Below, one piece after another: positions 3,478 to 63,248 of a stretch of 64,000 bases of DNA. The first letter of the stretch is position 1, and each line of letters starts with the position of its first letter. The stretch comes from a virus. Made by a program: the position numbers and the translations under genes. The stretch covers positions 6,490 through 70,489 of the IMG/VR virus record IMGVR_UViG_3300045741_000352; one strand, written 5' to 3'. The notes beneath the pieces are model-generated. The model worked only from the letters and a program-made list of their open reading frames with translations, was not told the DNA's origin and did not search any database.

Positions 3478-4563
3478 CTAGTCGATGTCGTCCACACTGT
3501 CCAGACCGTCAAGGAAAGCGTCTACACTGTCGGGAATACCGGCGGACGGGTAGACGTGTTCTTCTGTACCATCGGTCAGCACAAGAATCTGTTCGAGTGC
3601 CTTGGCTTTCAGCGCAGCACCAGAGCCAAGAATAGCGGATTCCGCACGGGAGGTGGCTCTGTCGTCGCCACGTGTAGCGCGAGAATGATCGACGTAGTTT
3701 GTCACCGCGTTATACAGCGCATACGCCGTGTGCTCCCAGGGAAAAGCGTTGCCGTCATTGTGCGACCAGAGCGCGGTGATGTCGCGTTTGATATTCTCAC
3801 TCTTGGTTGATTCCCCAGGGAACAAGCTGTCCAGAATTGCCGTGTACCTCTCGCGTTTGATGATTTTACGCTGTGCAAGCGTCTCCAGCTTGGTTTGTAA
3901 ATCTTGCTGCGTGGCGAGCACACCTTGCACGAGGTTGTGTGCCGCGTGCATTTTATGGTGCACGTTTTTGGTATGTTTGAACCGTAGCGTTGTGCCTGTC
4001 ACGTTACCAAGGGAAAATTGTAACGTGTTCATGCATACGATCCGCGTGCCAGTAAGGTACGCTTGTGCTGCCAGGCTACCATCAAAAGAGTTGATAAACG
4101 CGAGGTAGGTACGTGTTACGTCGCCACTGCCTAGCACGTCGATTTGCCCTACCCTGGCGCTAATAAACAGCACAGAGCCACCACGCAGAGCGCCAGCGCT
4201 GTCGTAGTGGAAACCGCTGCCTTCTATCATTGTATCGACGAAGTCAAACATATGGACAGGTTGAATGATGGCATAGCTTGCCCCTACCGTGCCGATATGC
4301 GCGCCAGTGTCGGAACGGAAAATGCCAACCTTGTCAGATTTGAAAAATTTACTACCCCATTGTTCCGCAAGTGCTGCTTGTGGGGAATCACACGGCGCGT
4401 GTGCATATAGCGCAAGGTCAAGTGCAGTCCATGGAATGACCTGTTGTATCGCGTCGCTCGCTGAGAATGCACCTTGCACAATCTGGCCCAGTCTGTGCCA
4501 TGCACCTGTGTCGGCCAACAACAACTCAGCTTGGTTATTTTTGAAAGACAATTCATGTGCCAT
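3478..4563 (-). CDS. DUF932-like phage/plasmid protein
   Basis: 361 aa. The N-terminus MAHELSFKNNQAELLLADTGAWHRLGQIV matches my recollection of the DUF932 / TIGR03299 family pattern (..PWHglG..v). Recognised from memory only. Confidence 0.65.
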   Translation of the reverse strand: MAHELSFKNNQAELLLADTGAWHRLGQIVQGAFSASDAIQQVIPWTALDLALYAHAPCDSPQAALAEQWGSKFFKSDKVGIFRSDTGAHIGTVGASYAIIQPVHMFDFVDTMIEGSGFHYDSAGALRGGSVLFISARVGQIDVLGSGDVTRTYLAFINSFDGSLAAQAYLTGTRIVCMNTLQFSLGNVTGTTLRFKHTKNVHHKMHAAHNLVQGVLATQQDLQTKLETLAQRKIIKRERYTAILDSLFPGESTKSENIKRDITALWSHNDGNAFPWEHTAYALYNAVTNYVDHSRATRGDDRATSRAESAILGSGAALKAKALEQILVLTDGTEEHVYPSAGIPDSVDAFLDGLDSVDDID

Positions 4564-4624
4564 GATGTACTGCTCCTATACGTTACTTTGTCGCGCTATG
4601 CCGCATACAGCACACGCTGTATAC

Positions 4625-4676
4625 CCTGTTTTTTCAGGTAGTGCAGGCTTTTAGCCTGCACTCCGCACACTTACGC
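4625..4676 (-). repeat. 52-bp intergenic leader element, copy 1
   Basis: Identical to 4902..4953. It contains the hairpin gtgcaggc-tttt-gcctgcac next to an A/T run. Confidence 0.85.
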
Positions 4677-4847
4677 ATGAGTACATGGACATGCCGGGCC
4701 TGTAATGCGCTCATAATGCAGACCGTTCACACAAAGCTGCACGGGGTATGCCGTTGCACGGCAATGAGCCGCAAGCGCTACCGCTTGCTGTTGTGGTAGT
4801 ACCGCCAACCATTCCTGCCGGGTGTCGTTAGTAATGACCGCGTGCAT
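4671..4847 (-). CDS. small hypothetical protein (58 aa, below the track cutoff)
   Basis: Hand translation gives ATG at 4847 and TAA at 4671-4673: MHAVITNDTRQEWLAVLPQQQAVALAAHCRATAYPVQLCVNGLHYERITGPACPCTHA. It is preceded by ataggagca, the same RBS context as neighbouring genes. Confidence 0.4.
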   Translation of the reverse strand: MHAVITNDTRQEWLAVLPQQQAVALAAHCRATAYPVQLCVNGLHYERITGPACPCTHA

Positions 4848-4901
4848 GTTTTGCTCCTATATGTTGTCGCGCTATGCCCTGACCAGTACCATACTGGTCA
4901 G

Positions 4902-4953
4902 CCTGTTTTTTCAGGTAGTGCAGGCTTTTAGCCTGCACTCCGCACACTTACGC
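4902..4953 (-). repeat. 52-bp intergenic leader element, copy 2
   Basis: Identical to 4625..4676. It begins right after the stop of the 98-aa gene. Confidence 0.85.
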
Positions 4954-5249
4954 TATTTGAGTATGGTGATATTAGATCGTCTGCCTTTTGCGTTGTACAC
5001 CTGTAGGGTACGGTATACGTGGTTGACACTTTCCCTGTACACGAGGTCAGCGCTGCGCCCATCGGGATGTACAGCACACGTGGTATCACCACGACGCACA
5101 CAGGTAAACCCCAGGCTTTCGAGCCAGGCGGTAAACTCAGCATGCCGATTGTCTTCGTTACGTCTGCGCTGTGCTGCGCTGCCAGCAGGCGACCAGAAAT
5201 AGACGTTAGCGGTCAAAAACGTCGGACGTGCTACTGTTGCTGTTGCCAT
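4953..5249 (-). CDS. hypothetical protein
   Basis: Track ORF of 98 aa with the ataggagcaaaacata RBS context before the ATG. Confidence 0.5.
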   Translation of the reverse strand: MATATVARPTFLTANVYFWSPAGSAAQRRRNEDNRHAEFTAWLESLGFTCVRRGDTTCAVHPDGRSADLVYRESVNHVYRTLQVYNAKGRRSNITILK

Positions 5250-5268
5250 TATGTTTTGCTCCTATCGG

Positions 5269-5805
5269 TTACGCTACATACTCACTACTGCGTTGCACCA
5301 CATCATTTTTCGTGTGCCATGCGTCGATGTAGTCATCGACGTGATACCTGGCGCTGTTTGCCTGATCTGTCCAGTGCCACACACCGCTTGGCGATTGATA
5401 GGCGTATGTCGTCACACCCACCGCTTGCATCAGGTACACAATGTACTGTCCAAGCGACACAGGATAGGAAAAATTGTCGCATATCTTTTCAAACTTCTTT
5501 TGTATTACTTTCAGATACGGACCAAATTTGTCTATATCTTCCAGCGTAATCATATCAGAACGGTTCGATGTGAAACCGTAGCGCCAGCCATAGCTAACAC
5601 TTTTTGTACTACAGCTTGCATCGTATTGGGACGACAGGGTAAAATGACCGTAAATAGGGTCATCGTATGGCGCAGGATCAGGCTTGCTGTACACGTGATT
5701 AAACGGGCGCAGTATTGCCGTAGTATGGCCGTATTTTTCGCCATAATTCTCGTTACGGTGGTGAATGATACAGCACAGATCGTGCGACGGTTTAATGATA
5801 GCCAT
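5269..5805 (-). CDS. hypothetical protein
   Basis: Track ORF of 178 aa with ctaggagcg upstream of the ATG. It is the first gene of the leftward block, next to the divergent region 5806-5940. Confidence 0.55.
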   Translation of the reverse strand: MAIIKPSHDLCCIIHHRNENYGEKYGHTTAILRPFNHVYSKPDPAPYDDPIYGHFTLSSQYDASCSTKSVSYGWRYGFTSNRSDMITLEDIDKFGPYLKVIQKKFEKICDNFSYPVSLGQYIVYLMQAVGVTTYAYQSPSGVWHWTDQANSARYHVDDYIDAWHTKNDVVQRSSEYVA

Positions 5806-5940: not shown

Positions 5941-6549
5941 ATGAGTGAAATTGTGGCGAATTCTGCGGTCATTGAACCACCCAGTGTCTTAAAAGAACTA
6001 AGCGCAAACTCCGTGAAATTCTGTGAGTATTACGCCTTAAATAACAATGCTTTACAGTCATGCATACTTGCTGGCTTTGCATCAAGTTCGGCACGAACAT
6101 ACGCCTATGACACATTGCTTAAAAATCCTAAAGTTTTGGAAGCGGTTGAATATTTCAGAGCTGTAAATGCCTCAAATTCAACGTATACACCTGCTAAAAT
6201 TGTCGCGCAATGGTCAGAAATGGCCTCATTTAACATTTTAGATTGCTGCGATGAAAATTATATACTCAAGCCGCTGAGTCAATTGGATGAAGAACAAAAA
6301 CGCAGGCTTGGCATTGCGTTGACCGGATTGAAAATCACGGTAAAAAATGGCAGGCAATATGTTGAGCCGAAAATGGCGCGAGAAACCGCGTTGCAAGAGC
6401 TGGGTAAAATCCATCGCCTCTATGCCGACGATAAGCAGCAAGGGCAAGGTTTGAATCTCACGATCAATGTAGGGCAGCAAGTTGTTGTAGAACAAGAACT
6501 TAGCGAAAATATCGGACACCTTGTCATGAAAGATGAAGAGCTGGCATAG
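5941..6549 (+). CDS. terS: terminase small subunit (Terminase_2-like)
   Basis: 202 aa. The N-terminal KFCEYYALNNNALQSCILAGFASSSARTYAYDTLLKNPKVLEAVE matches the F..eY....N...A...AGys...A...a..ll.n..v pattern of phage small terminases. It lies upstream of terL. Confidence 0.75.
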   Translation: MSEIVANSAVIEPPSVLKELSANSVKFCEYYALNNNALQSCILAGFASSSARTYAYDTLLKNPKVLEAVEYFRAVNASNSTYTPAKIVAQWSEMASFNILDCCDENYILKPLSQLDEEQKRRLGIALTGLKITVKNGRQYVEPKMARETALQELGKIHRLYADDKQQGQGLNLTINVGQQVVVEQELSENIGHLVMKDEELA

Positions 6550-6752
6550 TATTTGCATTCCTATATATATATAAGCATGTGGCGCATGGGCCTGCACTCT
6601 GGCTTTTCACTGGTGTGGTACCTCGCTGATCGTTGGCTTTTGCGTCACACGTGACATCCCACCAAACGCGCTACAATGCCTCTATTTTGCGTTTGCCTTT
6701 CCAGACGTGTCTCTACCCTACCTGGCCAGCCAGAATGCAATAGCGTCGAAAT

Positions 6753-6767
6753 TATCACAGTGATAAT
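6753..6767. promoter_or_regulatory. 15-bp perfect palindrome (operator-like)
   Basis: ttatcac-a-gtgataa, with 7-bp arms around a single central base, in non-coding DNA. Confidence 0.3.
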
Positions 6768-6790
6768 AATGTAACCTTTTCTCGCCTCCA

Positions 6791-6810
6791 TACTGTACAC
6801 TTGAGCAGTA
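6791..6810. promoter_or_regulatory. LexA (SOS) box-like site
   Basis: tactgtacacttgagcagta fits TACTG-N10-CAGTA, the outer arms of the gammaproteobacterial LexA consensus TACTGTATATATATACAGTA. One position departs from the CTGT-N8-ACAG core (GCAG). Confidence 0.3.
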
Positions 6811-6848
6811 TACGGGGAAAAGTGTTAGCATCTACATTGTACTATGGG

Positions 6849-6923
6849 TGGACCTAGAGTGGACCTAGAGTGGACCTAGAGTGGACCTAGAGTGGACCTA
6901 GAGTGGACCTAGAGTGGACCTAG
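6849..6923. repeat. 11-bp tandem repeat, about 6.8 copies
   Basis: tggacctagag is repeated head to tail six times, followed by a partial copy. Confidence 0.95.
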
Positions 6924-6974
6924 TGCCCATGCGTGCAGTATGTAGTCCAATGCGATACCTTATATGAGGTACGA

Positions 6975-7135
6975 TCCTACTTGATACAGTCTGTAGCTGT
7001 GTACTAATACTAATTGGACGCTACTAGATTGGATTAGTCCATGAGTACAGTCGCTATCGTATCGGTCGCGTCCTACTTGATACAGTCTATGGCTGTGTAC
7101 TAATACTAATTGGACACTACTAGGTTGGCTTAGTC
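6975..7135. repeat. pair of 65-bp direct repeats (6975-7039 and 7071-7135)
   Basis: tcctacttgatacagtct(g/a)t(a/g)gctgtgtactaatactaattggac(g/a)ctactag(a/g)ttgg(a/c)ttagtc occurs twice, 96 bp apart start to start. Confidence 0.9.
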
Positions 7136-7367
7136 TGTATCTATGATCGCTATTTTTTTGGCCGCGTTCTGTTCAGCATGGGCCATGGGTATATCCTAGT
7201 ATGAGTTGATTGGTACAGGTTGGGGTATGGGGGCTTTGGAAAAGGGACCGGCTGCAAGAGTGGTGTATGCATCGACCTCCCGCGCACCCCGTGTGTTCCT
7301 CTGTATTTCTTCGCACCCTGGATATTCCACAGTATTTGCACGCCCCCAGCATTTCTCACCAGGTGAA

Positions 7368-7425
7368 GCACAGGAGGGGTACCGTACCGAGAGCACAGGA
7401 GGGGTACCGTACCGAGAGCACAGGA
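7368..7425. repeat. 25-bp tandem repeat, about 2.3 copies
   Basis: gcacaggaggggtaccgtaccgaga occurs twice, followed by a partial copy. Confidence 0.9.
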
Positions 7426-7583
7426 TGAACTACCCAGATTTTTGGGTGTGCGTAGAAAGTTTCTCTATACCATAGTAGTATATATTTTCATGTCGAAATG
7501 TGAATATATGTTGTGGACAGTTGACCAACTTAAATGGTGGGCAGCCGTCCACAAACACACAAAAAAGATAAAAATCACAGAAT

Positions 7584-7638
7584 ATTCGGGTGAAACACCC
7601 CACGTTTATACACTAAGAAAATTCGGGGGTGTTTTTTG
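7584..7638 (+). terminator. terminator-like hairpin with an alternative upstream pairing
   Basis: acacccc (about 7595-7601) can pair with ggggtgt (7626-7632), which is followed by a T-run. It can instead pair with the upstream gggtg (7588-7592). The attcggg motif is duplicated. Confidence 0.3.
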
Positions 7639-7900
7639 TAGTGGTATTATGATGGGTAAAACATCCTAAATTTTTGTAAATTTTATGCTAAAAACACGGT
7701 TTTTTTTAGAAGTTTGCACGTCAAGTGTTTTCACTGTCCCGCCCTTATATAAGAAAAATCAATATCTTACAGACATTTGGGACAGTGCCCAACTTCTCTG
7801 TTTTGATTTTGGAGCTGCCAACGCTTTTTTCTGTGTCACCTATTTTTGCTCTCATATAGCGCGATGCGCGTACACACGCGCAGTATACCATGTTCAGACT

Positions 7901-7982
7901 TCCCCATCTGCCGTCCTGTGCTATTCCCATTCCCCATCTGCCGTCCTGTGCTATTCCCATTCCCCATCTGCCGTCCTGTGCT
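7901..7982. repeat. 30-bp tandem repeat, about 2.7 copies
   Basis: tccccatctgccgtcctgtgctattcccat occurs twice, then a truncated third copy that runs directly into the -35 hexamer. Confidence 0.95.
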
Positions 7983-8010
7983 TGACAGTGGGTAGTAAAA
8001 ATCGTATATT
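7982..8010 (+). promoter_or_regulatory. sigma70-type promoter candidate upstream of terL
   Basis: TTGACA (7982-7987), a 17-nt spacer, then TATATT (8005-8010). It lies about 95 nt upstream of the terL ATG. Confidence 0.55.
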
Positions 8011-8104
8011 TTCTGCTAACATACGCAAAGGCCATACGTATGTACTTTTCCAGCCCTCGTTGAGAGTGGGCACGCTCCCTCACTCTCGACTTACGCGAGA
8101 AAAT

Positions 8105-9601
8105 ATGCCGCAACTTACACTTGAATACATCGCATCACCCACCATCGCAAAATTCATACGCTCGGATAAGTTTTATGCGTTGTGTTGTGGCGCTAGAGGG
8201 TCCGGCAAGTCCACGGCGGGGCTGATGCGAACGATTATTCGAGCGAATCAACTCCCACCACAATACCACCCGCTTCGTTGGGCCGTTGTACGCGATACCC
8301 GCAAAAACATTGGCCTTACTGTCGCACGCACCATACGCAAATGGTGCCCCGAACCTTATGCAAAATGGCGAGGTAAACCAGAAGAACCTGAATCCTGTGT
8401 GATCTACATCAAAGGCAAACCTCTGGTCCATTTTGATTTTTTTGGTGTGAACTCTCCAGGGGATCATGACCGCTTTCAGTCCTACGAAGCATCTGGTGGT
8501 ATATGGCTCGAAGAACCCTGCCCCTTAGCCACCAACACCGAATTTGTGGCATCTGGTATCGCTGAATCTGTGCTGGCTTCGGCGCAAACATCAGTACGTG
8601 GTGGGCCAAATCCCTCTATCCAGATTACCATGAACCCGCCTTCCGCTGATCACTGGACAGCACAACTTTTTCACTTACCAGGCTTTGAAGCTGCTGGTGA
8701 TGATGAAATGGAAATGCCACCTGAAGCCATAGAGCAACGAAAGAGAATACGCGAATCCGCCGATGTCTTCATGGTGCCCCCCTCCGAATGTGCTGCTGAG
8801 AAAGAAACACCGGGGTATACCGAACGTAACCGACAGATACTTCTGGCGACAGGTCGAACGGACCTCCTTGCGCGTCTCGTGGATGGTCGTATTGGCTACG
8901 CACAGGTTGGGGAACGTGTCACACCTGAATTTTCGTCGATGCACATTGTCAATGGGCTCACCATTATCCCACGTGTGCCTATTATTCTCGCATTTGACTT
9001 TGGACTGAATGCCACGTGTATTGCAGCGCAAATTACCCCACAGGGATACTTACACATTCTGCGAGCCTGGACACGTGAGAACGCGGGAATGAAGCAATTA
9101 CTTACCACCGATGTGCAACCATGGCTTGCACAGCAGCCTGTGGAATCCTGGTGGTATTGTGGCGGACCTGAAGCACGTGAACGTGAGCAATCGGACTCTG
9201 AAGAAACTGCGCTACGCATGATTGTGAACACACTTGGTAATGCGTCGTATCGTGCCGGACCTGTCTCGTGGTCCGCACGTCGTGATGCACTGAGAGACGC
9301 GCTGACACGCACGCCTGGCGGACTCACGTGGATTCGCGTTTCTCAACAAGGTGCCGCACTGCTTATACGGGCACTGGACGGTGGTTGGCATTACCCAACA
9401 GATAGTATGGGGCATATTAGAAATAACGGCCAACCAGATAAACGCAGCAAATGGGATCACTTAGGGGATGCTTTCTCGCACCTCTGCGCTGTGCTACTCA
9501 AGAAAACGGACAATTCCTCCAGGTCTGTGCAAAAGCAGCGTCCCTCGCTTGTGCGTCATAACCATACGGTATATACTGGTTCAACACGAACAGGAGTGTA
9601 A
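8105..9601 (+). CDS. terL: terminase large subunit
   Basis: In-frame ATG at 8105 within track ORF 7685..9601 (MPQLTLEYIASP). Walker A is CCGARGSGKST and a Walker B-like IWLEEP follows. The C-terminal half has conserved acidic residues (DHLGDAF) consistent with the nuclease domain. Confidence 0.85.
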   Translation: MPQLTLEYIASPTIAKFIRSDKFYALCCGARGSGKSTAGLMRTIIRANQLPPQYHPLRWAVVRDTRKNIGLTVARTIRKWCPEPYAKWRGKPEEPESCVIYIKGKPLVHFDFFGVNSPGDHDRFQSYEASGGIWLEEPCPLATNTEFVASGIAESVLASAQTSVRGGPNPSIQITMNPPSADHWTAQLFHLPGFEAAGDDEMEMPPEAIEQRKRIRESADVFMVPPSECAAEKETPGYTERNRQILLATGRTDLLARLVDGRIGYAQVGERVTPEFSSMHIVNGLTIIPRVPIILAFDFGLNATCIAAQITPQGYLHILRAWTRENAGMKQLLTTDVQPWLAQQPVESWWYCGGPEAREREQSDSEETALRMIVNTLGNASYRAGPVSWSARRDALRDALTRTPGGLTWIRVSQQGAALLIRALDGGWHYPTDSMGHIRNNGQPDKRSKWDHLGDAFSHLCAVLLKKTDNSSRSVQKQRPSLVRHNHTVYTGSTRTGV

Positions 9602-11167: not shown

Positions 11168-12199
11168 ATGCCAGCGCCAAAGAAAAATGTCGCTTACAGC
11201 TTTGATGTGATGTTGCCGGATAGCGCGAACCCCGGCAAGTATAAAAGCAATCCGACGCTTGCAGCCGGAGACGTGAAAGTCACAAGTGACGAAGGCGCTC
11301 TTGCCAACATTACGAGCTTGCCAACGGTGAGCCCCGCAGCCGGGCGCAATGTGAAGGTTTCTCTTAGTCAGACGGAAATGAATGCTGACCGTATCTCTAT
11401 TGTTTTTAGCGATCAAACTGTTCCGCAAGAATGGGATGACCTTTTCATTTTCCTGTGTACAGAAAGTGCAACTCTAACAGATATTGACGGTAGGATTCCG
11501 AGTGCATTGGCAAGCAGTGGAAACATCAAAGCAGACATTGATACCATAAAAACAAATCCTGTTGTGAATGCAGGTACAGTAACATTTCCAACAACGGCGA
11601 CACTTGCAAGTACAACAAATATTACTTCTGTCGGCGCTGTCACAGGTGCAGTTGGTTCTGTCACAGGTGCAGTTGGTTCTGTCACAGCAGGTGTGACTGT
11701 TACAACGAACAACGATAAAACAGGTTACGGTTTATCTGCTGCGGCAGTACAAGCTGTATGGGATGCGTTGACATCAGCACTGACTACAGCGGGAAGTATT
11801 GGAAAATACCTACTTGATCACATTGTAGGAACACTTGCTGCGGGGACGCATAATCCACAGACAGGTGACGCATACGCACGTCTCGGTGCTCCAGTTGGGG
11901 CGAGTATAAGCGCGGATATTGCCGCAGTAAAAACGCAGGTAACGTCTACAGGTGTCGCGCTTACATCAGCAGAAAGAAACTCAGTTGCCGATGCCTTACT
12001 TGACCGCACTGATGGAGTAGAAACGAGCGTCACAGTACGTCAGTCGTTGCGCCTTGCGAATGCCGCAAATGGTGGAAAAACAGACGGTATGGCGACAACA
12101 ACTGCACATTTGCGTGATCTCGCTGACACAAAAAACCGTGTAACAGCTACCGTAGATGCAAATGGAAATAGAACCGCAGTAACGAGGGATTTGACGTAA
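11168..12199 (+). CDS. hypothetical structural-type protein (Thr/Ala/Val/Gly-rich)
   Basis: 343 aa with the internal duplication GAVGSVTGAVGSVT. Composition is fibre- or decoration-like. No family recognised. Confidence 0.45.
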   Translation: MPAPKKNVAYSFDVMLPDSANPGKYKSNPTLAAGDVKVTSDEGALANITSLPTVSPAAGRNVKVSLSQTEMNADRISIVFSDQTVPQEWDDLFIFLCTESATLTDIDGRIPSALASSGNIKADIDTIKTNPVVNAGTVTFPTTATLASTTNITSVGAVTGAVGSVTGAVGSVTAGVTVTTNNDKTGYGLSAAAVQAVWDALTSALTTAGSIGKYLLDHIVGTLAAGTHNPQTGDAYARLGAPVGASISADIAAVKTQVTSTGVALTSAERNSVADALLDRTDGVETSVTVRQSLRLANAANGGKTDGMATTTAHLRDLADTKNRVTATVDANGNRTAVTRDLT

Positions 12200-47917: not shown

Positions 47918-48127
47918 TTAATCTTCGTGCTGATCTTTCTGTCCCTGCTCATATCCTCGCTCCCAACCTACTTCGTATGCCACTTGTAAATGATCGACCA
48001 TGCTTTCAAGTAGCTCACGATCCAAGCGACCTACACGAGAAAACAATTGACCGATCCACCGCTGAAAATGTCTCTCTTCTGTGCTGTCCATTAGCTGCAC
48101 CCCGCACTCATACCGCATGTATCGCAC
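47918..48127 (-). CDS. hypothetical protein
   Basis: Track ORF of 69 aa. It overlaps the 3' end of the RNR gene by 37 nt. Confidence 0.4.
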   Translation of the reverse strand: MRYMRYECGVQLMDSTEERHFQRWIGQLFSRVGRLDRELLESMVDHLQVAYEVGWERGYEQGQKDQHED

Positions 48128-50772
48128 ACGAAACAGTTACCAGTACGACGAAGCATTAAAACACCGCAGTCAGGGCACAGTGGTGCATCGTGTGATTGCA
48201 GTGCCGGACCAGCTTCATTGTCGTCCGTGCTCGGCTGCACTACATCGCCGTCAAATTGGATAGAAAGCCAGCGAAAAATATAGTCAATCACACTACTTGC
48301 CATAGGTAGCTTTGGATTACCTGTAAAACCTGATGGCTCAAACCGAGTGTGACGCAGCTTGTCAGTAAGCACAGACAGGGGGACGCCGTATTGAAGCAGC
48401 AGTGACGTGAGTACACCAACGGTGTCCATCAACCCCCGCACTGTGCTACCTTCTTTTGACATGGTGATGAACAGCTCGCCGGGCCTGTTTGTATCTGGGT
48501 ACATACCAACATTCAAATATCCCTCATGATTACCCACCTTAAATTTGTGGTTGTGTGCTGGACGATCCACAGGAAGTCGTACACGCGGAGGTTGTGCAGG
48601 TGTAATTTCTTCGATGTTAAACATAGCTTTTGCGAGATTTTCACTCGCTTCTTGGATAGGGTTCACTTTGGGTAAGTACCAGTTCGTATCTGGCTCCGCC
48701 CATCTGATTTTACCAGATTTCAATGTAGCGATATCCGAAAACTGTTCTGGTGGAATTTGTGCAATGGGTGCAGCAGATTGCTGCACAGTGACGGGTTGTA
48801 CGGTTTTACAACCATCACGATACACGGCCACAGACTTAAGCCCAAGCTGCCACGCTATAATGAACGCTTGTTCAATGTCTTCAACAGTGGACTCATTTGG
48901 CATGTTGATAGTCTTTGACACAGCGCCACTGAGTAAGGGTTGCACAATGGCTACCATCGCTATGTGATCACGCCAGGAGATTGTGTTGTCTCCAAGTGCT
49001 GTGGCAAACACCGCCATGTGCGTCGGGTCCAGTAAGCCACTCTCAACACTGTGCTGTAATGAGCCCGTGTTTTCAAGTTCAACCTGTATTTTGTTACGTG
49101 TGTGTTGATCGTAACCAAGTGCGGTGAGTCCGGCCATAAAAGACTTATTGATCATTTTGACAGAGCCGCCGCCTACAAGTTTTTTATCCTGAATAAGCCC
49201 CAGGCACGGCTCAATGCCGGTCGTTTCACAGTCCATCAGAAAACTGATCGTGCCCGTTGGCGCAAGCAGTGTGACCTGGCAGTTACGAAAACCGTGCTCT
49301 TTGCCCATCTGTAGGGCCTTGCGCCATATATCAGCCGCGTAAGGTCGTCCGTTTTTTTTGTGCTTTTCAATGACTGCCAACATTTCGTCACCGTTCTCAG
49401 GATAACCAGAGAAAGGCCCTTTCTTCTTTGCAATCTTAGCCGATTGTAGATATGCCTCACCTGTCATGAGTGAGGTAATGTCACACGCCGTCAAACGTCC
49501 AGCCGCGCTGCTATACGGCAAGCCTTTCGCCATGAGCAATGCGCCCAAATTTGCATAGCCTAGACCAAGAGAACGAAAGTCGTGCGAGTTCTTTGCAATG
49601 CTGTCCGTTGGGTAGCTCGAACGATCTACGATAATGTCCATCGCTGTAATGAGCACATCAACGGTGTGCTTAAATGCCTCTGCATCGAAACTGCCGTCCG
49701 GTCGTAAAAATGGTAAAAGGTTGATTGAGGCCAGATTGCAGGCTTCATCAGGTGGTCGCATAAATTCGGAACATGGATTTGTCGATACTATTCTTCCTTG
49801 TCCTGGTGTAGTGTGCCAACTATTGATTGTATCGACAAAAAATAACCCAGGATCACCACACATCCATGCGGCAGAGGCTATTTTATGCAACAAAAGACCT
49901 TTCTCACCGTGCGGTCTTGGCCAAGATGCAAGTTGCATGAAGTCATCGGTAACACTTACACTGTTGTTTGCATTTTGAAATGGGATGTACTCCTGTACTG
50001 CACTTTCCATGCTTCCATCATATCCCGCGTCAATTAACGCATGAGCCATTTCTTCCGCTCTGACTTTACACCAGATAAACTCTTCAATATCTGGGTGATC
50101 GTGGTCCATAATAACCATCTTCGCGGCACGTCGTGTTGTGCCGCCCGACTTGATGACACCCGCATTGGTGTCTGCACCGCGCATAAAAGATACCGGGCCG
50201 CTCGCTTTACCCCCACTTGTAATTGCCGCATTTTTTGGACGTAATTTTGAAATGTTGACACCAGCACCGGAACCATTCTTGAAAATCATCCCTTCGGTGC
50301 GGTACCACTCAAGAATGGACTCCATGTTATCTTCAACGTCCAAAATGAAACAAGCACTACATTGTGGTTCTGTTTGTACTCCTACGTTGAACCACACAGG
50401 CGAATTAAAAGCTGCGAGCTGGTGAAGTAAGATAAAGCACAACTCTTGATTGAAAATGATGGCATTCTTGTCGTCAAAATAACTATCAAGTAAACCCCAC
50501 GTCGCTATTGTATTAACTACACGTTGAATCATTTGCCGTACCGAGGTCTCTTGTACACCGTCCACCACACGAAAATACTTACTGGCAACGATGTTCGACG
50601 CTCGAACAGACCAGGAAATTGGGAACTCTGCGTCTCGCATTTCAAAAGCAATACTGCCGTCATCGCGTTCAATTTTGACGTGGCGTTTTTCCCAAATTAC
50701 TAAATCAAATGGGTTTACACTTTCTTTTGTGAAGTATCCTGGTATTTCTAGCAGCGACATCATGCACTCCAT
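48091..50772 (-). CDS. nrdJ: class II (adenosylcobalamin-dependent) ribonucleotide reductase
   Basis: 893 aa. It has the active-site STNPCSEF motif, conserved GGTTRRAAKMV and LLAPTGTIS blocks, and a C-terminal CPDCG..(10)..CFVCDTCG zinc ribbon typical of NrdJ. The start may instead be the ATG at 50763 or 50760. Confidence 0.9.
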   Translation of the reverse strand: MECMMSLLEIPGYFTKESVNPFDLVIWEKRHVKIERDDGSIAFEMRDAEFPISWSVRASNIVASKYFRVVDGVQETSVRQMIQRVVNTIATWGLLDSYFDDKNAIIFNQELCFILLHQLAAFNSPVWFNVGVQTEPQCSACFILDVEDNMESILEWYRTEGMIFKNGSGAGVNISKLRPKNAAITSGGKASGPVSFMRGADTNAGVIKSGGTTRRAAKMVIMDHDHPDIEEFIWCKVRAEEMAHALIDAGYDGSMESAVQEYIPFQNANNSVSVTDDFMQLASWPRPHGEKGLLLHKIASAAWMCGDPGLFFVDTINSWHTTPGQGRIVSTNPCSEFMRPPDEACNLASINLLPFLRPDGSFDAEAFKHTVDVLITAMDIIVDRSSYPTDSIAKNSHDFRSLGLGYANLGALLMAKGLPYSSAAGRLTACDITSLMTGEAYLQSAKIAKKKGPFSGYPENGDEMLAVIEKHKKNGRPYAADIWRKALQMGKEHGFRNCQVTLLAPTGTISFLMDCETTGIEPCLGLIQDKKLVGGGSVKMINKSFMAGLTALGYDQHTRNKIQVELENTGSLQHSVESGLLDPTHMAVFATALGDNTISWRDHIAMVAIVQPLLSGAVSKTINMPNESTVEDIEQAFIIAWQLGLKSVAVYRDGCKTVQPVTVQQSAAPIAQIPPEQFSDIATLKSGKIRWAEPDTNWYLPKVNPIQEASENLAKAMFNIEEITPAQPPRVRLPVDRPAHNHKFKVGNHEGYLNVGMYPDTNRPGELFITMSKEGSTVRGLMDTVGVLTSLLLQYGVPLSVLTDKLRHTRFEPSGFTGNPKLPMASSVIDYIFRWLSIQFDGDVVQPSTDDNEAGPALQSHDAPLCPDCGVLMLRRTGNCFVCDTCGMSAGCS

Positions 50773-51026: not shown

Positions 51027-51277
51027 CAGTTTTTTCCATTAAAGCCTGGTATGTACACCAATGGCGGCTTCTGTACTTCGCTGCGAGACTTCTCTAAAGC
51101 CTCCATCGCCGCATTCAAAGCCATCTCCTGTGCTGTTATCAACAACCTGAGAACAGCAAACCAACCACCTCCTATATTAGCGTGCTGCATTTGCACTGTG
51201 GGTGTGTCGCTGCCAGGTTGAGGCGGCAGCACATCAATAACAAGTCTCGGATGATCAACTTCATTTGGTTGGCTCAT
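51026..51277 (-). CDS. hypothetical protein
   Basis: ATG at 51277 (MSQPNEVDH) after aagaggtg, within track ORF 51026..51391. Confidence 0.45.
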   Translation of the reverse strand: MSQPNEVDHPRLVIDVLPPQPGSDTPTVQMQHANIGGGWFAVLRLLITAQEMALNAAMEALEKSRSEVQKPPLVYIPGFNGKN

Positions 51278-51851
51278 AGCACACCTCTTTCGATTCCAGA
51301 CGCTCAATTTCCATTTGTGTACAGCAAAACCAGGCAACTTTGGCGAGATCGTCTTCAGGCTCTCCGTTCCTACATTCACCGACATACTCACCTGTAGTAA
51401 GCAAGTGAATGTAAATTTTTAGGTGTTTTAGTGCGTGATTAGCCCTTTCAATTTGAAAAGGTGTATTGTCTGCGCCCAGACGCCAGTTGTCACGCCCGTA
51501 CTTCACTTCACCTTCTCTGAACACCGCGCCAATACGCTTTTCCGCCTCAAGAGGTATCTGCGTCAGGTCGTATGGTTCCACATCGGTGCGAGCTGCGGCG
51601 TCTTTGGTTTTTACAGTAGGCGTCAAAGGAGTGTTCTCGCTCAAACCACAGTGTACACACTGGCGTGTACCGTTGCTGTAATCAATGAACTCGTGACCTT
51701 TGCACAAATCGTGACCTTTGCGTAACTCGTGTGCAATTTCTTGGGGAGTTTTCATAGATGGTGACTCCAAAATTTTGCGGATTTTATTACATTCTGGGCA
51801 AGTGTCAGTTCTGTAATACCCGTGATATTTACACGTATACATCGGCATCAA
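51261..51851 (-). CDS. zinc-ribbon plus dATP/dGTP pyrophosphohydrolase-like (DUF5664-type) protein
   Basis: 196 aa. The N-terminus has CxxC pairs (CPECNK, CVHCG). The C-terminal IPLEAEKRIGAVFREGEVKYGRDNWRLG....ANHALKHL matches my recollection of the phage MazG-like NTP-PPase domain pattern (KYG..NW..G ... RHL). Confidence 0.55.
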   Translation of the reverse strand: MMPMYTCKYHGYYRTDTCPECNKIRKILESPSMKTPQEIAHELRKGHDLCKGHEFIDYSNGTRQCVHCGLSENTPLTPTVKTKDAAARTDVEPYDLTQIPLEAEKRIGAVFREGEVKYGRDNWRLGADNTPFQIERANHALKHLKIYIHLLTTGEYVGECRNGEPEDDLAKVAWFCCTQMEIERLESKEVCYEPTK

Positions 51852-52390
51852 TTATACGCCTTCGTAGGCCCTTGCTGGCCCTTATATCTTCCTACATAAG
51901 ACTGCACAGTTCTCTCTGTCAGTCGATCATAAACGAGCTGCACAATACGCTCCCCCTGTGCTATACGAACGGGTAGATGTGTTTCGAGTTCGAGTGTAAT
52001 CTGTCCCTCAAATCCTGGATCGATGAAACCCGCCATTTTATGCCCGAGCCCTTTTCGTGCAGGGGATGAACGCATTTGCAAAAATGCACAGTGTGTGCTG
52101 GGTACAATGATGTTCTCAATCGTAGAGCACAGGTAAAAATACCCAGGTCTGAAGGTATATTTCTCACCGTCAAACAACCTGACTTCGCGCCAGTCTACAA
52201 ATTGATCTTCTCTCGTGCACCAAAACAAGAACCGTAAATGACACCACAAACGACGCCACCGCGAAGGTCTCTTTGCGAATTTAATAATGTTGTGCAGTCG
52301 CAAATCAACGGACGCCGGACCCACATTGTTACGCACATAACCAAACTCTGCTGCATGTTTTGCCAACCATTGATGCGGCTCAACCGCCAT
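51848..52390 (-). CDS. dcd: dCTP deaminase / dUTPase-superfamily enzyme
   Basis: ATG at 52390 (MAVEPHQW) overlaps the thyX stop (TAATG). Motifs GPASVDLRL and GFIDPGFEGQITLEL are both present. Confidence 0.8.
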   Translation of the reverse strand: MAVEPHQWLAKHAAEFGYVRNNVGPASVDLRLHNIIKFAKRPSRWRRLWCHLRFLFWCTREDQFVDWREVRLFDGEKYTFRPGYFYLCSTIENIIVPSTHCAFLQMRSSPARKGLGHKMAGFIDPGFEGQITLELETHLPVRIAQGERIVQLVYDRLTERTVQSYVGRYKGQQGPTKAYN

Positions 52391-53244
52391 TACGCACGCT
52401 CCTGAAAAAGATTCGGCCAACGTTCAATGCACTTATTTTTCCACAAAGATGCCAAACGTTGAAACTCCAGGTCTGCATATTCGTTGGTACGTTCAAGGAA
52501 AAGTTTTTTAAGTGCTTCCGGGTTGGTTGTCCACACCAGAGATGTCATCGCACTGTGCGGCAAGAAAGACGAAGCAGCTTCGTAGATACGTTTACGGTTG
52601 AGACCTTTGGGGTCTTTTCCTTCGTGCATCTCACGATAGTTATGCTCTTGTTGGTGTATGTACGCACGATAGTTGTTGTAAGCCGCTAACATACTGTCTT
52701 GGAAAAAACTGGTATCAGCTTCACTGTGGTATACCCATGGGTGTACCACGAACCAACCAGGGTGCTCGACATAGCGTGTCGATTCTTGTGACGGCGAACC
52801 TTCCTCATCACGATCAGCGCCAACGTAGTGTCGGATAAGTTCGTGTGTCAATCGACGACTGATACCAGAAAGAAAAAAGGTCATTTTGGGGTGATACATG
52901 AGAGATTTGTGAGGTATTTGACCGAGTTGTGTATTAGCGATGTATCCAGCGTTGTCTGGTGTACCCGCTTTAGCGCCAAATGAATAATAGCATAATCGTC
53001 CACTCAACTCGACAAGAAGCTCATTGTCAGTGATCTGTCGTGTGCGCTCCCAACCTTCATGGGGAAAGAGCATTGCTTTACACCACGCATCACCTTCAAA
53101 ATCAGAAAACGCCTTGGCATAGCCAGACGGGTAACACTCAGGATGTGCCTCTCTTATACTTTGAATTACCTGTTGCAGTGCCCCAGGAATGAAGCGTTGT
53201 TCGCTCAAAGGTATGACTGTAGGCTCCGTGACAATATGTATCAC
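52390..53244 (-). CDS. thyX: flavin-dependent thymidylate synthase ThyX-like
   Basis: 284 aa with a ThyX signature region, RRLTHELIRHYVGADRDEEGSPSQESTRYV. The canonical motif is RHR..S....S.RY. Here RHY replaces RHR and about 10 residues are inserted. Confidence 0.75.
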   Translation of the reverse strand: MIHIVTEPTVIPLSEQRFIPGALQQVIQSIREAHPECYPSGYAKAFSDFEGDAWCKAMLFPHEGWERTRQITDNELLVELSGRLCYYSFGAKAGTPDNAGYIANTQLGQIPHKSLMYHPKMTFFLSGISRRLTHELIRHYVGADRDEEGSPSQESTRYVEHPGWFVVHPWVYHSEADTSFFQDSMLAAYNNYRAYIHQQEHNYREMHEGKDPKGLNRKRIYEAASSFLPHSAMTSLVWTTNPEALKKLFLERTNEYADLEFQRLASLWKNKCIERWPNLFQERA

Positions 53245-54189: not shown

Positions 54190-54495
54190 TTAACCGGAGC
54201 CGTCGCCGTCGCCGTCGCCGGAGCCGTAGCCGTAGCCGTAGCCGTAGCCGTCGCCGTCGCCGTCGCCGTCGCCGGAGCCGTAGCCGTAGCCGGAGCCGTA
54301 GCCGTAGCCGTAGCCGGAGCCGTAGCCGGAGCCGTCGCCGGAGCCGTAGCCGTCGCCGGAGCCGTAGCCGTCACCGTAGCCGTTACCGTAGCCGTTACCG
54401 TTACCGGAGCCGTAGCCGTCTCCGGAACCGTAGCCGTAGCCGTAGCCGTAGCCGTCACCGTAGCCGAAGCCGGAGCCGTCGTCTATTCTTTCCAT
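54190..54495 (-). CDS. Gly-X dipeptide-repeat protein, array copy A (101 aa)
   Basis: ATG at 54495 and TAA at 54190-54192. Product is MERIDDGSGFGYGDGYGYGYGYGSGDGYGSGNGNGYG...GDGDGDGSG. Start and stop context is shared with copies B-D. Confidence 0.55.
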   Translation of the reverse strand: MERIDDGSGFGYGDGYGYGYGYGSGDGYGSGNGNGYGNGYGDGYGSGDGYGSGDGSGYGSGYGYGYGSGYGYGSGDGDGDGDGYGYGYGYGSGDGDGDGSG

Positions 54496-54514
54496 GTGTA
54501 TATTTTCACTTATT

Positions 54515-54796
54515 TTAGCCGTAGCCGTAGCCGTCACCGTTACCGTTACCGTTACCGTAGCCGTAGCCGTAGCCGGAGCCGTCACCGTTACCGTAGCCGT
54601 CGCCGTCGCCGGAGCCGTAGCCGTAGCCGTCGCCGGAGCCGTAGCCGTAGCCGTAGCCGTAGCCGTAGCCGTAGCCGGAGCCGGAGCCGGAGCCGGAGCC
54701 GTCGCCGTCGCCGTCGCCGTAGCCGTCGCCGGAGTCGTCGCCGTAGCCGTAGCCGTCGCCGGAGCCGTAGCCGTAGCCGTCGCCTATTCTTTCCAT
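54515..54796 (-). CDS. Gly-X dipeptide-repeat protein, array copy B (93 aa)
   Basis: ATG at 54796 and TAA at 54515-54517. Product is MERIGDGYGYGSGDGYGYGDDSGDGYGDGDGDGSGSGSGSGYGYG...NGNGNGDGYGYG. Confidence 0.55.
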   Translation of the reverse strand: MERIGDGYGYGSGDGYGYGDDSGDGYGDGDGDGSGSGSGSGYGYGYGYGYGYGSGDGYGYGSGDGDGYGNGDGSGYGYGYGNGNGNGDGYGYG

Positions 54797-54815
54797 GTGT
54801 ATATCTTCGCTTATT

Positions 54816-55061
54816 TTAGCCGGAGCCGTAGCCGTAGCCGTAGCCGTCGCCGTCGCCGTCGCCGTCGCCGTAGCCAGAGCCGTAGCCGTCGCCGGAGCCG
54901 TAGCCGTCACCGGAGCCGTAGCCGTCACCGGAGCCGTAGCCGTCGCCGTCGCCGGAGCCGTAGCCGGAGCCGTAGCCGGAGCCGTCGCCGTCACCGTAGC
55001 CGTAGCCGGAGCCGGAGCCGGAGCCGTCACCGTAGCCGGAGCCGTTGTCTATTCTTTCCAT
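54816..55061 (-). CDS. Gly-X dipeptide-repeat protein, array copy C (81 aa)
   Basis: ATG at 55061. Product is MERIDNGSGYGDGSGSGSGYGYGDGDGSGYGSGYGSGDGDGYGSG...GYGYGYGSG. Confidence 0.55.
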   Translation of the reverse strand: MERIDNGSGYGDGSGSGSGYGYGDGDGSGYGSGYGSGDGDGYGSGDGYGSGDGYGSGDGYGSGYGDGDGDGDGYGYGYGSG

Positions 55062-55080
55062 GTGAATATCTTTACTTATG

Positions 55081-55421
<341 letters not shown>

Positions 55422-55434
<13 letters not shown>

Positions 55435-55823
55435 ACAGGCACTTTTGCTATGGATTCTTTTGCCTGTGGTGTAACAGCCAGAATTTCAATAGCCTCTGTC
55501 AAAATAACTTCTTTGACCTCCGTAGGAAACTTACAATCTTTTGGTTTCTTGACTCCTTCCATAGCAAGTTGTGACAAGCTAGCCGCCCCTGCCCAATACC
55601 AAATACGGCGTGCGTCAGTAAGCGTCACTTCTTTGTCATCACGAGCCGCTAGAGTACCTGCAAAAACACCAGCAGAGTATGTACGACAAATAACGTAATC
55701 ACCGATTTTCGTACCAACATTTTTTTGCTCGTGATTTGAAATCCACTTCTTTATTAAGGTCATTTCTTCTGTATGACCCCAATTCTCACTTTCAAGATCA
55801 CCAAGTAATCGTTCCCAATTCAT
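55422..55823 (-). CDS. hypothetical protein
   Basis: Track ORF of 133 aa, with aaaggagaa before the ATG (aaaggagaatttagtATG). The central DARRIWYWAGAASLSQLAMEGV block looks like a conserved phage small-protein family that I cannot name. Confidence 0.55.
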
Positions 55824-55910: not shown

Positions 55911-56122
55911 AGAGTTATGCAAGTTGCAATGGCGGCTGAGTGTGTACGGCAGCGTTCTATACGCACAAAGTCACAATTGAAACACTCCCAACCCGGCAAC
56001 TAGCTACGAGCTAGCCACCGTTTCTCAATGCTACAAAGTGTTTTTACAACATAGCCGTATGCTGGCTTGTTTACACAGAATGTGCCTACTAGAAATAGAC
56101 AAAATCCGCACTTTGTAGCAAC

Positions 56123-56195
56123 TGCGAGGGTGTGAGTCGAACACACTGATTTTCAGGTTCAAAGCCTGACGGGCCACCGTTGCCCCATCCTCGCA
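56123..56195 (-). tRNA. tRNA-Gln(UUG)-like element with a non-canonical junction
   Basis: The minus strand reads TGCGAGGATGGGGCAACGGTGGCCCGTCAGGCTTTGAACCTGAAAATCAGTGTGTTCGACTCACACCCTCGCA. It has a D arm GGGC/GCCC with a GG-containing loop, and an anticodon arm TCAGG-CTTTGAA-CCTGA (U33, anticodon TTG, A37). The T arm is GTGTG-TTCGACT-CACAC and the acceptor pairs 7 bp as TGCGAGG/CCTCGCA. One extra nucleotide at the acceptor/D junction or in the variable loop prevents a textbook cloverleaf. Confidence 0.5.
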
Positions 56196-56244
56196 ACCGA
56201 CATTAGATACTATACCACCATAGTATTATCTATGCAAATAAATT

Positions 56245-62185: not shown

Positions 62186-62524
62186 TTACAATGAGATACC
62201 ACATTGTTCCTTCTCCTCAAGTACCGCATCCATTCCAATGCACGTCAAATACTCTGGCGAAAAACCTAGCTTGAGTTTCTGCAATAATCCGACTTTTTCG
62301 TAGACCTCCATATACGACTTCGTTATTTTTTCTTGACATTGCAGAGAACACGTAGGACTAAAATGCCCAGTTAGATGTGCTTTATTATTTTCACAGTGAA
62401 TCCGTTGTCCACAACCAGCACAATAGGCTGACACTTTAGTCGTAAATGTCCTATCTCTCATCGTATGCACACACTTCATCAATGATTGCTGTCGATGCGA
62501 TGTCCATTTCTCGCAGTGTGGCAA
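62186..62524 (-). CDS. Cys-rich hypothetical protein (start uncertain)
   Basis: Track ORF of 112 aa (CAGCGQRIHC ... CSLQC). Its 5' end overlaps the parB-like gene, and internal ATGs at 62479 and 62461 are possible starts. Confidence 0.4.
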   Translation of the reverse strand: MPHCEKWTSHRQQSLMKCVHTMRDRTFTTKVSAYCAGCGQRIHCENNKAHLTGHFSPTCSLQCQEKITKSYMEVYEKVGLLQKLKLGFSPEYLTCIGMDAVLEEKEQCGISL

Positions 62525-63248
62525 TTATCCATGGTAAACCGTGTCCTTTAACAAGCCGCACCAGTGTGTCTTCGTCACTTGACGCACCGCCCTGCATTAC
62601 AGCCAGCGTCTCTGGCCTGGGTGTTGTTTTCTTCTCGACACGCGCCTTGACTTTCTTTTCAAGTAATTCTTTTTGTGGTGTACTGGTACGGTTGGATTCT
62701 TGCACGACGCGCAAGCCGTCACTCACCGTAATTTGTTTTTCGGCAATTGCCTGATGTACTTCTGGTTCCGCTTCCAACATAGTTAAGCGTCCAGATACGT
62801 AGGAGATACTTTTGCCGATCTTCGCAGCAATACGCCGCAATTCCCAACCAAAACACTTGAGTCGGTTGAAAGCGTGTGCTTCTTCTATAGGATCAAGAGC
62901 CGCTGCGTTTATGTTAGAAGCCAGAGCACGCGCAAGTAACTCACCCTCATCCCGCGAGGTTTCAAGCACAGCGGGGATAGCAAGTATCTCTAATCCTTCA
63001 TCCATGAGTTCCAGTGTTGCCCGTAAGCGCCTCTCACCATCCACCAGATACAACTCTGTGTCTTTACGACTGAGTAACACAGGCTTGTGATTGTAAAATC
63101 CGTTGTCGCGTATAGACTCTTTCAGCTCCTCAACGTCAAAACGTGTGCGCGGGTTCCATCCGGGTCGCACAATGATTTTGCGGGGGTTTACCTTAAAGAG
63201 ATCTGTGGACCCCACATAGGCGTCTGTTTTCTTCATAGATGAAGACAT
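62451..63248 (-). CDS. parB: ParB N-terminal domain protein (ParB-like partition or nuclease family)
   Basis: 265 aa. It has IRDNGFYNHKPVLL and LVDGERRLRATLEL (the GERR.RA arginine patch). An HTH-like segment, RRIAAKIGKSISYVSGRL, follows. Confidence 0.8.
   Translation of the reverse strand: MSSSMKKTDAYVGSTDLFKVNPRKIIVRPGWNPRTRFDVEELKESIRDNGFYNHKPVLLSRKDTELYLVDGERRLRATLELMDEGLEILAIPAVLETSRDEGELLARALASNINAAALDPIEEAHAFNRLKCFGWELRRIAAKIGKSISYVSGRLTMLEAEPEVHQAIAEKQITVSDGLRVVQESNRTSTPQKELLEKKVKARVEKKTTPRPETLAVMQGGASSDEDTLVRLVKGHGLPWIIATLREMDIASTAIIDEVCAYDER

Follow-up and report, generated by a model that had tools for sequence, protein, structure and literature searches.

Terminase genes and the island between them

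Why does a phage keep 1.55 kb without recognisable genes between its two terminase genes, and what could this DNA do there? The question is raised by IMG/VR virus record IMGVR_UViG_3300045741_000352, of which a stretch of 64,000 nucleotides (positions 6,490 to 70,489 of the record; here the window, with coordinates counted from its first letter) was analysed. The small terminase gene terS (5941-6549, plus strand, 202 aa; Pfam Terminase_2 E=1e-10, phrog_51 E=1e-17) forms the left boundary of the island, and the large terminase gene terL (8105-9601, plus strand, 498 aa; phrog_2 E=3e-16) forms the right one. The island is the composite non-coding head of the terL/structural operon, built from four kinds of sequence. 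Here it is tentatively proposed, as the best explanation, that it is a terminase recognition region, probably of the pac type, next to the late promoter. The function of the island was inferred throughout from comparative anatomy, using about 40 related loci, the neighbourhoods of TerL homologues (labelled L001-L042).

The largest closed open reading frame (ORF) in 6550-8104 has 112 aa, a length reached by 11% of dinucleotide shuffles (88 +/- 20 aa). None of the ORFs of the gap matched Pfam or PHROGs, and tblastx of the gap against the related loci found no conserved coding frame, and on these results the small-protein hypothesis for this interval was rejected. An Rfam scan of the island gave nothing at the gathering threshold, nor at E<=1. 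The 1.55 kb between the terminase genes are real non-coding DNA, as the first-pass annotation had claimed from the absence of a convincing ORF. The start of terL was placed at 8105 because about 50 homologues (~500 aa) align from residue 1. In total, 51 homologues were collected, and the Walker A motif of the window's TerL is GARGSGKS. The homologues P0022 and P0043 (854 aa) contain an intein/homing-endonuclease insertion (Pfam PF05204, PF05203, PF14528). Because a TerL profile found no terminase match among PDB sequences, and NCBIfam gave none for TerL or TerS, the packaging type could not be inferred from the TerL family.

The TerL homologues, with 50-79% identity, come from soil and groundwater metagenomes. 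Near-identical DNA was not found in cultured phages and no prophage relatives were found in 185,579 reference genomes, so the clade looks lytic and uncultivated. Peptide patterns found no TerS relatives in IMG/VR; in L003, L004, L006, L019 and L026, TerS is 34-50% identical to that of the window. Among cultured phages, TerL is closest to that of small podophages (Ss1, VA-RY-3 and a pelagiphage), with 22-25% identity, and nothing decisive was found in the literature on the split-terminase layout or on the termini of these phages.

The distance between terS and terL is 1.5-4.5 kb in nearly all relatives examined, the exception being L042, in which terS abuts terL. The cargo between the two genes includes small minus-strand genes, a pentapeptide-repeat protein, Bro-N, free-standing HNH endonucleases and an integrase-like gene. 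The cargo differs even within the identical-TerL pair L004 and L005, with an HNH gene present in L004 and absent from L005. Since nearly all relatives have such variable cargo, the split is a clade trait and was not made by the repeats. The earlier argument from the usual adjacency of terS and terL, which had made their separation a sign of a packaging site, therefore fails. The free-standing HNH genes (L004 7136-7825, compared with L005; L026 4994-5869) are present or absent among near-identical genomes, as is typical of homing elements.

Block B, a conserved element linked to the terminase genes

The island contains an element, here named Block B, that is found across the clade. Its core (7220-7319, plus strand) is non-coding and has GGGGTATGGGGG, then AAGGGACCG, then a C-rich run. 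The general character over ~100 nt is G-rich, then GGGACCG, then C-rich, and the full layout reads GGGGTATGGGGG, AAGGGACCGTC, CATAGGC, C-rich run, A-run and GTACCCTACC. Searched with nhmmer, a Block B profile hit 15 distinct lineages, once in each, and every copy precedes the terL operon on the same strand as terL. Loci outside the training of the profile were also recovered (L041, E=2e-6; L042, E=1e-5). The element is kept, between terS and terL or upstream of both, in every lineage with TerL at least 50% identical and enough upstream DNA, except L034; for L035, only 0.4 kb of upstream sequence was available to the search. Exact Block A (described below) or Block B patterns had no match in IMG/VR. 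A Block B-like stretch seen by eye just after the terS-like gene of the distant L040 had no nhmmer support and was dropped.

The genomic backgrounds of Block B are very different from each other. The contigs of L006, L007, L037 and L041 (41-74 kb) combine terS, Block B and terL with Prim-Pol/AAA_25, ERF, a MobA/MobL relaxase, a type IV secretion system (T4SS) coupling protein, IS605 TnpB and an integrase-like gene, and have no portal gene within 9.5 kb downstream of terL. These look like plasmid-like or phage-plasmid elements with their own terminase. In 17.5 kb of L006, only TerS, TerL and Block B are common with the window, which indicates that Block B travels with the terminase genes and not with the replication or structural modules. 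A pac site is expected, among other things, to be a unique cis site linked to the terminase genes, and Block B is such a site in 15 lineages, including the plasmid-like backgrounds. Because it accompanies the terminase genes across such different backgrounds, a role in packaging recognition is plausible, and to this extent the packaging region suggested by the first-pass annotation has indirect support from the co-occurrence of Block B with terS/terL, and none from the tandem arrays or from adjacency.

The nearest promoter downstream of Block B is as close as 2 nt in L042 and as far as ~570 nt in the window, and in some relatives whole genes separate Block B from terL (HNH in L004 and L026, Bro-N in L003). 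Because the distance varies and genes are inserted, a position-independent cis site fits better than a promoter-proximal activator site. In L042, Block B is directly upstream of the adjacent terS-terL pair, which supports a packaging role since this is the classical pac/cos position relative to a terminase operon.

Short oriented motifs flank the core. In the 250 nt upstream of Block B, GGTAY, a motif picked after inspection of the data, occurs 46 times on the plus strand compared with 7.9 expected (~6-fold), and 15 times on the minus strand. The motif at the 3' end, GTACCCTACC (GTACCSTACC type), is inverted relative to these upstream motifs. It reads GTACCGTACC in the window, where it occurs twice inside the 25-mers of a tandem array (7379-7388 and 7404-7413). 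The same 3' motif is duplicated in tandem in L001 (62 bp x2.4) and L021 (59 bp x2), and is found twice in L025.

Neither Block B nor Block A has the marks of a structured RNA. For Block B, z-scores of -2.1 to +1.4 and an alifold energy of about -1 kcal/mol gave no stable or conserved fold, and across Blocks A and B alifold gave -1 to -8 kcal/mol with almost no compensatory pairs and single-sequence z near zero. RNA hypotheses for Block A, Block B and the whole gap were rejected, with no Rfam match at E<=1 and no covarying structure. The blocks, lacking RNA structure, thus appear to act as DNA, and the regulatory RNA considered in the first-pass annotation is left without support from Rfam, alifold, covariation or z-scores.

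In the proposed mechanism, Block B and its flanking oriented motifs would be the site where TerS/TerL recognises the phage DNA and starts packaging. TerS oligomers would bind the repeated short motifs, and TerL would cut at the conserved core or close to it. The signal itself would not include the arrays, which would be rapidly evolving, dispensable amplifications of the flanking motifs. The pac type is favoured because TerS belongs to the Terminase_2 family, which is here taken to include the small terminase of SPP1, and because complete relatives assemble with arbitrary start points.

Several observations weigh against a terminase recognition site. Block B is absent from the 4.2 kb before terL in L034, whose TerL is 64% identical, and two variants of the second motif of Block B (GGGACCGT and GGAGTCCC) do not follow TerS similarity. 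The density of repeats is in itself no evidence for packaging, because arrays are absent from some relatives. Block B is always upstream of the first plus-strand promoter of the operon, within 2-8 nt in L042 and L041, and a transcriptional role fits this position about as well. Furthermore, the pac sites of SPP1, P22 and P1 are inside or at the start of terS, not kilobases downstream.

Block A, the late promoter and transcriptional control

A second conserved non-coding element, Block A (6730-6813, plus strand), was found in relatives with nhmmer E=1e-19 to 1e-23. At its core, the 33-mer CGAAATTATCACAGTGATAATAATGTAACCTTT (6747-6779) contains the perfect palindrome TTATCAC-A-GTGATAA at 6752-6766 and is followed on its 3' side by a GTGTAC...CAGTGGTAC-type motif. 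The window has one copy. The 33-nt core has 88-97% nucleotide identity in L016/17/18, L026, L013 and L011, where TerL is only 62-64% identical, and Block A is absent from many other lineages. From Block A to Block B the window has 406 nt, L016 has 128 nt, and L013 and L011 have 41-50 nt. In these last two loci, half-site mismatches lack compensating changes, and no consensus fold emerges; Block A therefore resembles a DNA site rather than an RNA hairpin, and behaves as a putative palindromic protein-binding site present in part of the clade. Of the operator-like sites in the island, of which the first-pass annotation reported two, one is a perfect palindrome (6752-6766), and the others, GTCAC-AC-GTGAC near 6645 and an imperfect one at 8027-8048, are weaker.

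The last ~125 bp of the island are a predicted host sigma-70-type promoter and a structured terL leader. The promoter of the terL/structural operon, TTGACA-17-TATATT (7982-8010, plus strand), has 11 of the 12 consensus positions. TTGACA-N17/18-TATAgT promoters were found 95-135 nt upstream of terL in most relatives (L009, L011, L013, L014, L016, L019, L021, L026, L034, L035 and L042), so that the late-operon promoter suggested earlier is supported by equivalent positions in more than 10 lineages. In the 5' untranslated region of terL, a 12-bp leader hairpin (8059-8090, plus strand; z=-3.9) has no U-run after it. Long perfect leader hairpins of unrelated sequence are present in 6 of 12 lineages, including L021, L026 and L001. 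L034 (4127-4190) and L035 (359-419) have hairpins of 21-24 bp with U7 directly before the terL start codon; these resemble intrinsic terminators or attenuators, suggesting that antitermination controls the late operon of these two loci. Genome-wide promoter motifs were also sought: GCAGTATA, as a phage-specific motif, occurs 3 times in 64 kb, within chance, and GTACCCTAC has one other occurrence in the window. Both were excluded as genome-wide promoters by these low counts in the 64-kb window.

These elements could also form a purely transcriptional control region at the early/late boundary with no packaging role; this is the main rival explanation, a real though somewhat unlikely one. Block A would be the repressor operator of an adjacent leftward early promoter, Block B with GGTAY would be the region where an activator or switch protein of the late operon acts, and the hairpin leader would be an attenuator or processing site. 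The layout of relatives agrees with this. L003, L016 and L026 have Blocks A and B flanked by two promoters, a rightward one for terL and a leftward one of consensus type (TTGACT-17-TATAGT in L016) that drives small minus-strand genes. In L042, only 2 nt separate the end of GTACCCTACC from the -35, and in L041 a promoter-like site follows it after 8 nt. The operator-like palindrome of Block A, which on the minus strand gives the extended -10 motif TGTGATAAT, and the U7 hairpins of L034/L035, which suggest antitermination-type control, point in the same direction. However, the distance between Block B and the promoter ranges from 2 to ~570 nt with genes inserted between, and Block B persists beside terL in plasmid-like elements without other shared phage genes. 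The co-oriented genes upstream of Block B in L006 show that it is not always a divergence point, and Block A is missing from many lineages with the same promoter layout. A position-independent packaging site, as proposed here, accommodates the variable spacing.

Tandem arrays and the low-GC segment

Four tandem arrays surround Block B, as found with Tandem Repeats Finder (TRF), all on the plus strand. The first (6848-6923) is a lineage-specific 11 bp x6.9 array of the unit GTGGACCTAGA, with copies 100% identical. The second (6975-7153) is a 96-bp direct repeat x1.9 with 84% matches, belonging to family D2 at 6975-7166. This corresponds to the "65 bp x2" family of the first-pass annotation, in which the repeat was correct and the unit size was not, the first ~65 nt being its well-conserved part. 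The third (7367-7425) is a 25 bp x2.4 array with 100% matches, carrying the 12-mer AGCACAGGAGGG and two copies of GTACCGTACC. The fourth (7900-7982) is a 30 bp x2.8 array, also 100%, which abuts the -35 hexamer and includes inverted-repeat families I3 and I10-I14. Together, the arrays make up 397 of the 1555 bases of the island. All four score >=100, compared with 0.01 arrays scoring >=50 expected from 200 shuffles, so the description of the island as repeat-dense holds. The arrays are head-to-tail without spacers, unlike CRISPR-type spaced repeats. A (TA)6 tract (6562-6573), read from the sequence, is located just 3' of the terS stop, inside the imperfect palindrome I6.

The 25-mer and 30-mer arrays have a 12-mer in common, AGCACAGGASGG, in inverted orientation, the 30-mer carrying CCGTCCTGTGCT, the reverse complement of the 12-mer in the 25-mer array. 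This relation had not been seen in the earlier annotation. There are 3 copies at 7367-7428 (the third degenerate) and 3 at 7911-7982, three on each side of a 32-46% GC segment, with 0.44 expected per whole window. One further copy of the 12-mer AGCACAGGAGG was found upstream of Block B in the L004/L010/L031 species and nowhere else, possibly by chance.

In relatives, the arrays are next to Block B or in the interval that separates it from Block A, and the unit and period differ with the lineage. L016 has an 11 bp x8.5 array of GGGCAGATCGC between Blocks A and B, unrelated to the 11-mer of the window though in the same place. Other arrays are 7 bp x9.4 (TGGACCC) in L025, 8 bp x10 in L005, 23 bp x9 in L001, 19 bp x2.9 in L009, and GGTAT x10 plus 20 bp x2.4 in L003. 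No array was found in L013, L011 or L026. The sequence AGATGAGT is present as 10 tandem copies in L005 and L032, compared with three dispersed copies in L004. The arrays, whose conservation among related phages had been suggested as a check, are the least conserved part of the island. Being lineage-specific, absent in some relatives, and dispersed in L004 but tandem in L005/L032, they appear to be recent and dispensable expansions.

Such variability could mean that most of the island, beyond the promoter and leader, has no function and is a hotspot of recombination and slippage, at which cargo genes are gained and lost and microsatellite-like arrays grow, with 7363-7986 possibly a decayed insertion. 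Among the explanations weighed here this is the least probable. Perfect array copies are a sign of recent expansion, their sequences are unrelated between lineages, and the terS-terL interval differs at identical TerL (HNH in L004 and not in L005; AGATGAGT x10 compared with three dispersed). Moreover, 7430-7899 is unique to the window and inverted 16-mers (I3) bound 7363-7986. Yet no target-site duplication surrounds 7363-7986 and no second copy of it was found. The Block A 33-mer, 88-97% identical where TerL is 62-64% identical, and Block B in 15 lineages also speak against a lack of function.

The segment between the 25-mer and 30-mer arrays (7430-7899) has 32-46% GC, with 32-41% over 7430-7799 compared with a window mean of 48%. 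It contains hairpins at 7511-7554 (inverted repeats), and 7430-7700 folds better than shuffles (z=-3.06). A hairpin at 7594-7633, with a T-run on its 3' side, upholds the terminator-like structure seen earlier; the terminator scanner missed it because of its 24-nt loop. Searches with blastn and tblastx against all loci found no counterpart for most of the segment. Its first ~35 nt, judged by eye, resemble a TTTTTGRG...TTTC motif located 3' of Block B in relatives.

Repeats next to a low-GC stretch recall replication origins, some of which, in lactococcal phages, lie between divergent early and late promoters. Here, an initiator would bind repeated motifs or iterons beside a G/C-rich core, the AT-rich region would unwind and the promoters would activate the origin, an explanation considered distinctly unlikely. 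In its favour, the repeats adjoin the 32-41% GC stretch at 7430-7799, several relatives have AT-rich motifs 3' of Block B, and an AT-rich TATATCAA-repeat stretch precedes the L025 array. In addition, leftward and rightward gene arms meet at the island in several relatives, and the fold at 7430-7700 with its terminator-like hairpin would allow a small primer-like transcript. Nevertheless, the lower-GC segment is specific to the window, without a counterpart in relatives, and the arrays are perfect, head-to-tail, unrelated in each lineage and absent in some, from which conserved spaced iterons would differ. The turn in GC skew follows gene orientation and does not single out the island. L006 keeps Block B, yet its Prim-Pol/AAA_25 has no homologue in the window (17.5 kb of L006 examined), so Block B is not co-inherited with the replication genes. 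A recognition site that moves with the terminase genes, as preferred here, agrees with the contents of L006.

Contig ends near terL

Of 22 long contigs, nine have an end in the 1.7 kb upstream of terL and one in the 1.7 kb downstream. Seven of these nine ends fall inside tandem or direct repeats, and hence look like assembly breaks. The ends have no homologous base in common, which is a weak test for fixed termini, whether cos or T7-like direct terminal repeats, since assemblies rather than reads were compared. Read-through contigs exist for the same phage (L019 compared with L020, and L025 compared with L024). The start points of four ~69-70 kb contigs from one species differ, as they would for permuted or terminally redundant DNA; this is compatible with the pac type without being specific to it.

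Fixed physical ends in the island are thus very unlikely. They would belong to a cos site, with an overhang formed by the C-rich run of Block B, or to a short direct terminal repeat like that of T7, bordered by short-repeat arrays and by strong promoters facing inwards. The genome end suggested here by the first-pass annotation finds no support in the scattered, mostly repeat-borne contig ends and differing start points. What speaks for such ends is the excess of contig ends upstream of terL, the small podophages as nearest cultured TerL relatives (22-25% identity), and a layout like the left end of T7, in which the terminal repeat is followed by ACCTAAAG-type short repeats and then by strong sigma-70 promoters. 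The overhangs of cos sites are typically conserved G/C-rich runs. The C-rich run of Block B, however, has no dyad (two-fold) symmetry in a 13-lineage alignment, of the kind expected of cosN. The repeat-borne contig ends without a shared base, the read-through contigs and the four different start points are further points against fixed ends.

Implications of a possible packaging signal

If Block B is a packaging signal, it would be a sequence landmark for orienting the genomes of this soil and groundwater clade and a testable terminase recognition site, and the presence of the same terS, Block B and terL set in plasmid-like elements would have a possible explanation. A broader proposal, considered unlikely, is that Block B with the GGTAY/GTACC motifs is an undescribed terminase-linked packaging signal, through which plasmid-like or mobilisable elements would be packaged into phage capsids, and that repeated action of the terminase there would have produced the hypervariable flanking arrays as a by-product, or would be modulated by them. 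The signal would be shared by a clade of uncultivated lytic phages of ~70 kb and by elements that have their own terS, Block B and terL alongside a relaxase and a coupling protein. The arrays beside Block B are a systematic assembly-break point, which accounts for the many terL contigs that are short or begin shortly before terL. Should the region be only regulatory, it would be an ordinary, though well-delimited, early/late control region.

Other features of the window

The region 4563-5805, left of terS, was considered as a non-coding part of the island and rejected, as it holds small minus-strand genes with GGAGC ribosome-binding sites. Within it, identical 52-nt copies at 4625-4676 and 4902-4953, with the hairpin AGTGCAGGCT-TTT-AGCCTGCACT, belong to a ~277-bp repeated leader cassette before consecutive small minus-strand genes, each with a GGAGC ribosome-binding site. 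In the structural region, a perfect 21-bp x2.4 tandem repeat (11637-11687) is found inside a 343-aa ORF (11168-12199).

A hexanucleotide array of the CCGTAG type, with ~205 copies and 64% GC, is present at 54194-55418. Its minus strand codes for a low-complexity protein rich in Gly, Tyr, Ser and Asp (GYGS/GDGD repeats), with a start near 55439, just after a 133-aa ORF (55422-55823); its true frame and length are uncertain because all frames are open. The sole tRNA of the window, tRNA-Gln (anticodon TTG; 56121-56196, minus strand), lies between this Gly/Tyr-repeat region and the gene for PolA (56245-58944), which has an N-terminal uracil-DNA glycosylase (UDG)-like domain. Nearby, the minus strand at 51261-53244 encodes a dATP/dGTP diphosphohydrolase N-domain protein (MazZ-like), a dCTP deaminase-like protein and ThyX, and a class II ribonucleotide reductase is encoded at 48091-50772. 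This nucleotide-metabolism cluster might point to modified DNA.

The minus-strand ORF 63258-63908 (216 aa), with 21-bp and 63-bp tandem repeats at 63341-63755, is a predicted repeat protein matching Pfam MSG (major surface glycoprotein repeat). It adjoins a ParB/Spo0J-family gene (62451-63248; TIGR00180 above cut-off). A search of the window for the canonical form of parS, TGTTTCACGTGAAACA with <=3 mismatches, matched only 28257, at chance level, and nothing in the island.

Comparison with known systems

The island has some features of the origins of lambda (ori), P4 (ori/crr) and lactococcal phage c2, such as non-coding direct repeats, an adjacent AT-rich stretch, flanking promoters and a possible small structured transcript. 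Unlike in these origins, the repeats are perfect head-to-tail copies that differ in each lineage, the AT-rich stretch is not conserved, and Block B co-occurs with terminase genes and not with replication genes.

The late leader of lambda (pR'-tR', Q antitermination) is similar in having one strong promoter, a very long structural operon and a stable leader hairpin, and the hairpins of L034 and L035 have the form of complete intrinsic terminators placed immediately before terL. In contrast, the hairpin of the window has no U-run, half of the lineages have no hairpin, and no Q-like gene was identified.

The concatemer junction of T7, which has the terminal repeat, the SRL/SRR arrays and strong host promoters, resembles the island in its short-repeat arrays by a conserved segment, followed by sigma-70 promoters. 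At the motif level there would be some resemblance in GGACCTA, GGGGTACC and CACAGTG. Nevertheless, the T7 terminase genes are far from the junction and all T7 genes are on one strand, whereas no terminal repeat can be demonstrated in the island and its TerL is not detectably T7-like in sequence.

The cos site of lambda (cosQ-cosN-cosB), too, is unique and oriented, spans 100-200 bp and precedes the terminase operon, an arrangement seen in L042; it likewise has a conserved G/C-rich core and repeated protein-binding motifs on one side. The differences are that the core of Block B has no two-fold symmetry and no contig ends coincide there, that a promoter lies here between the site and the terminase gene, and that terS is on the other side in most relatives.

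With the pac sites of P1 and SPP1 (pacL-pacC-pacR), the differences are of position and sequence: known sites are within or at the start of terS, whereas the candidate site is 0.7-3 kb downstream of terS, or upstream of both genes in L042, and Block B has no similarity to known pac sequences. The likenesses are in organisation, since both are cis-acting DNA linked to the terminase genes, and short oriented motifs flank a core, as do the four and three hexamers around the cut region of P1 pac. As in pac systems, the relatives of the window assemble as if permuted, and the TerS of the window belongs to Terminase_2.

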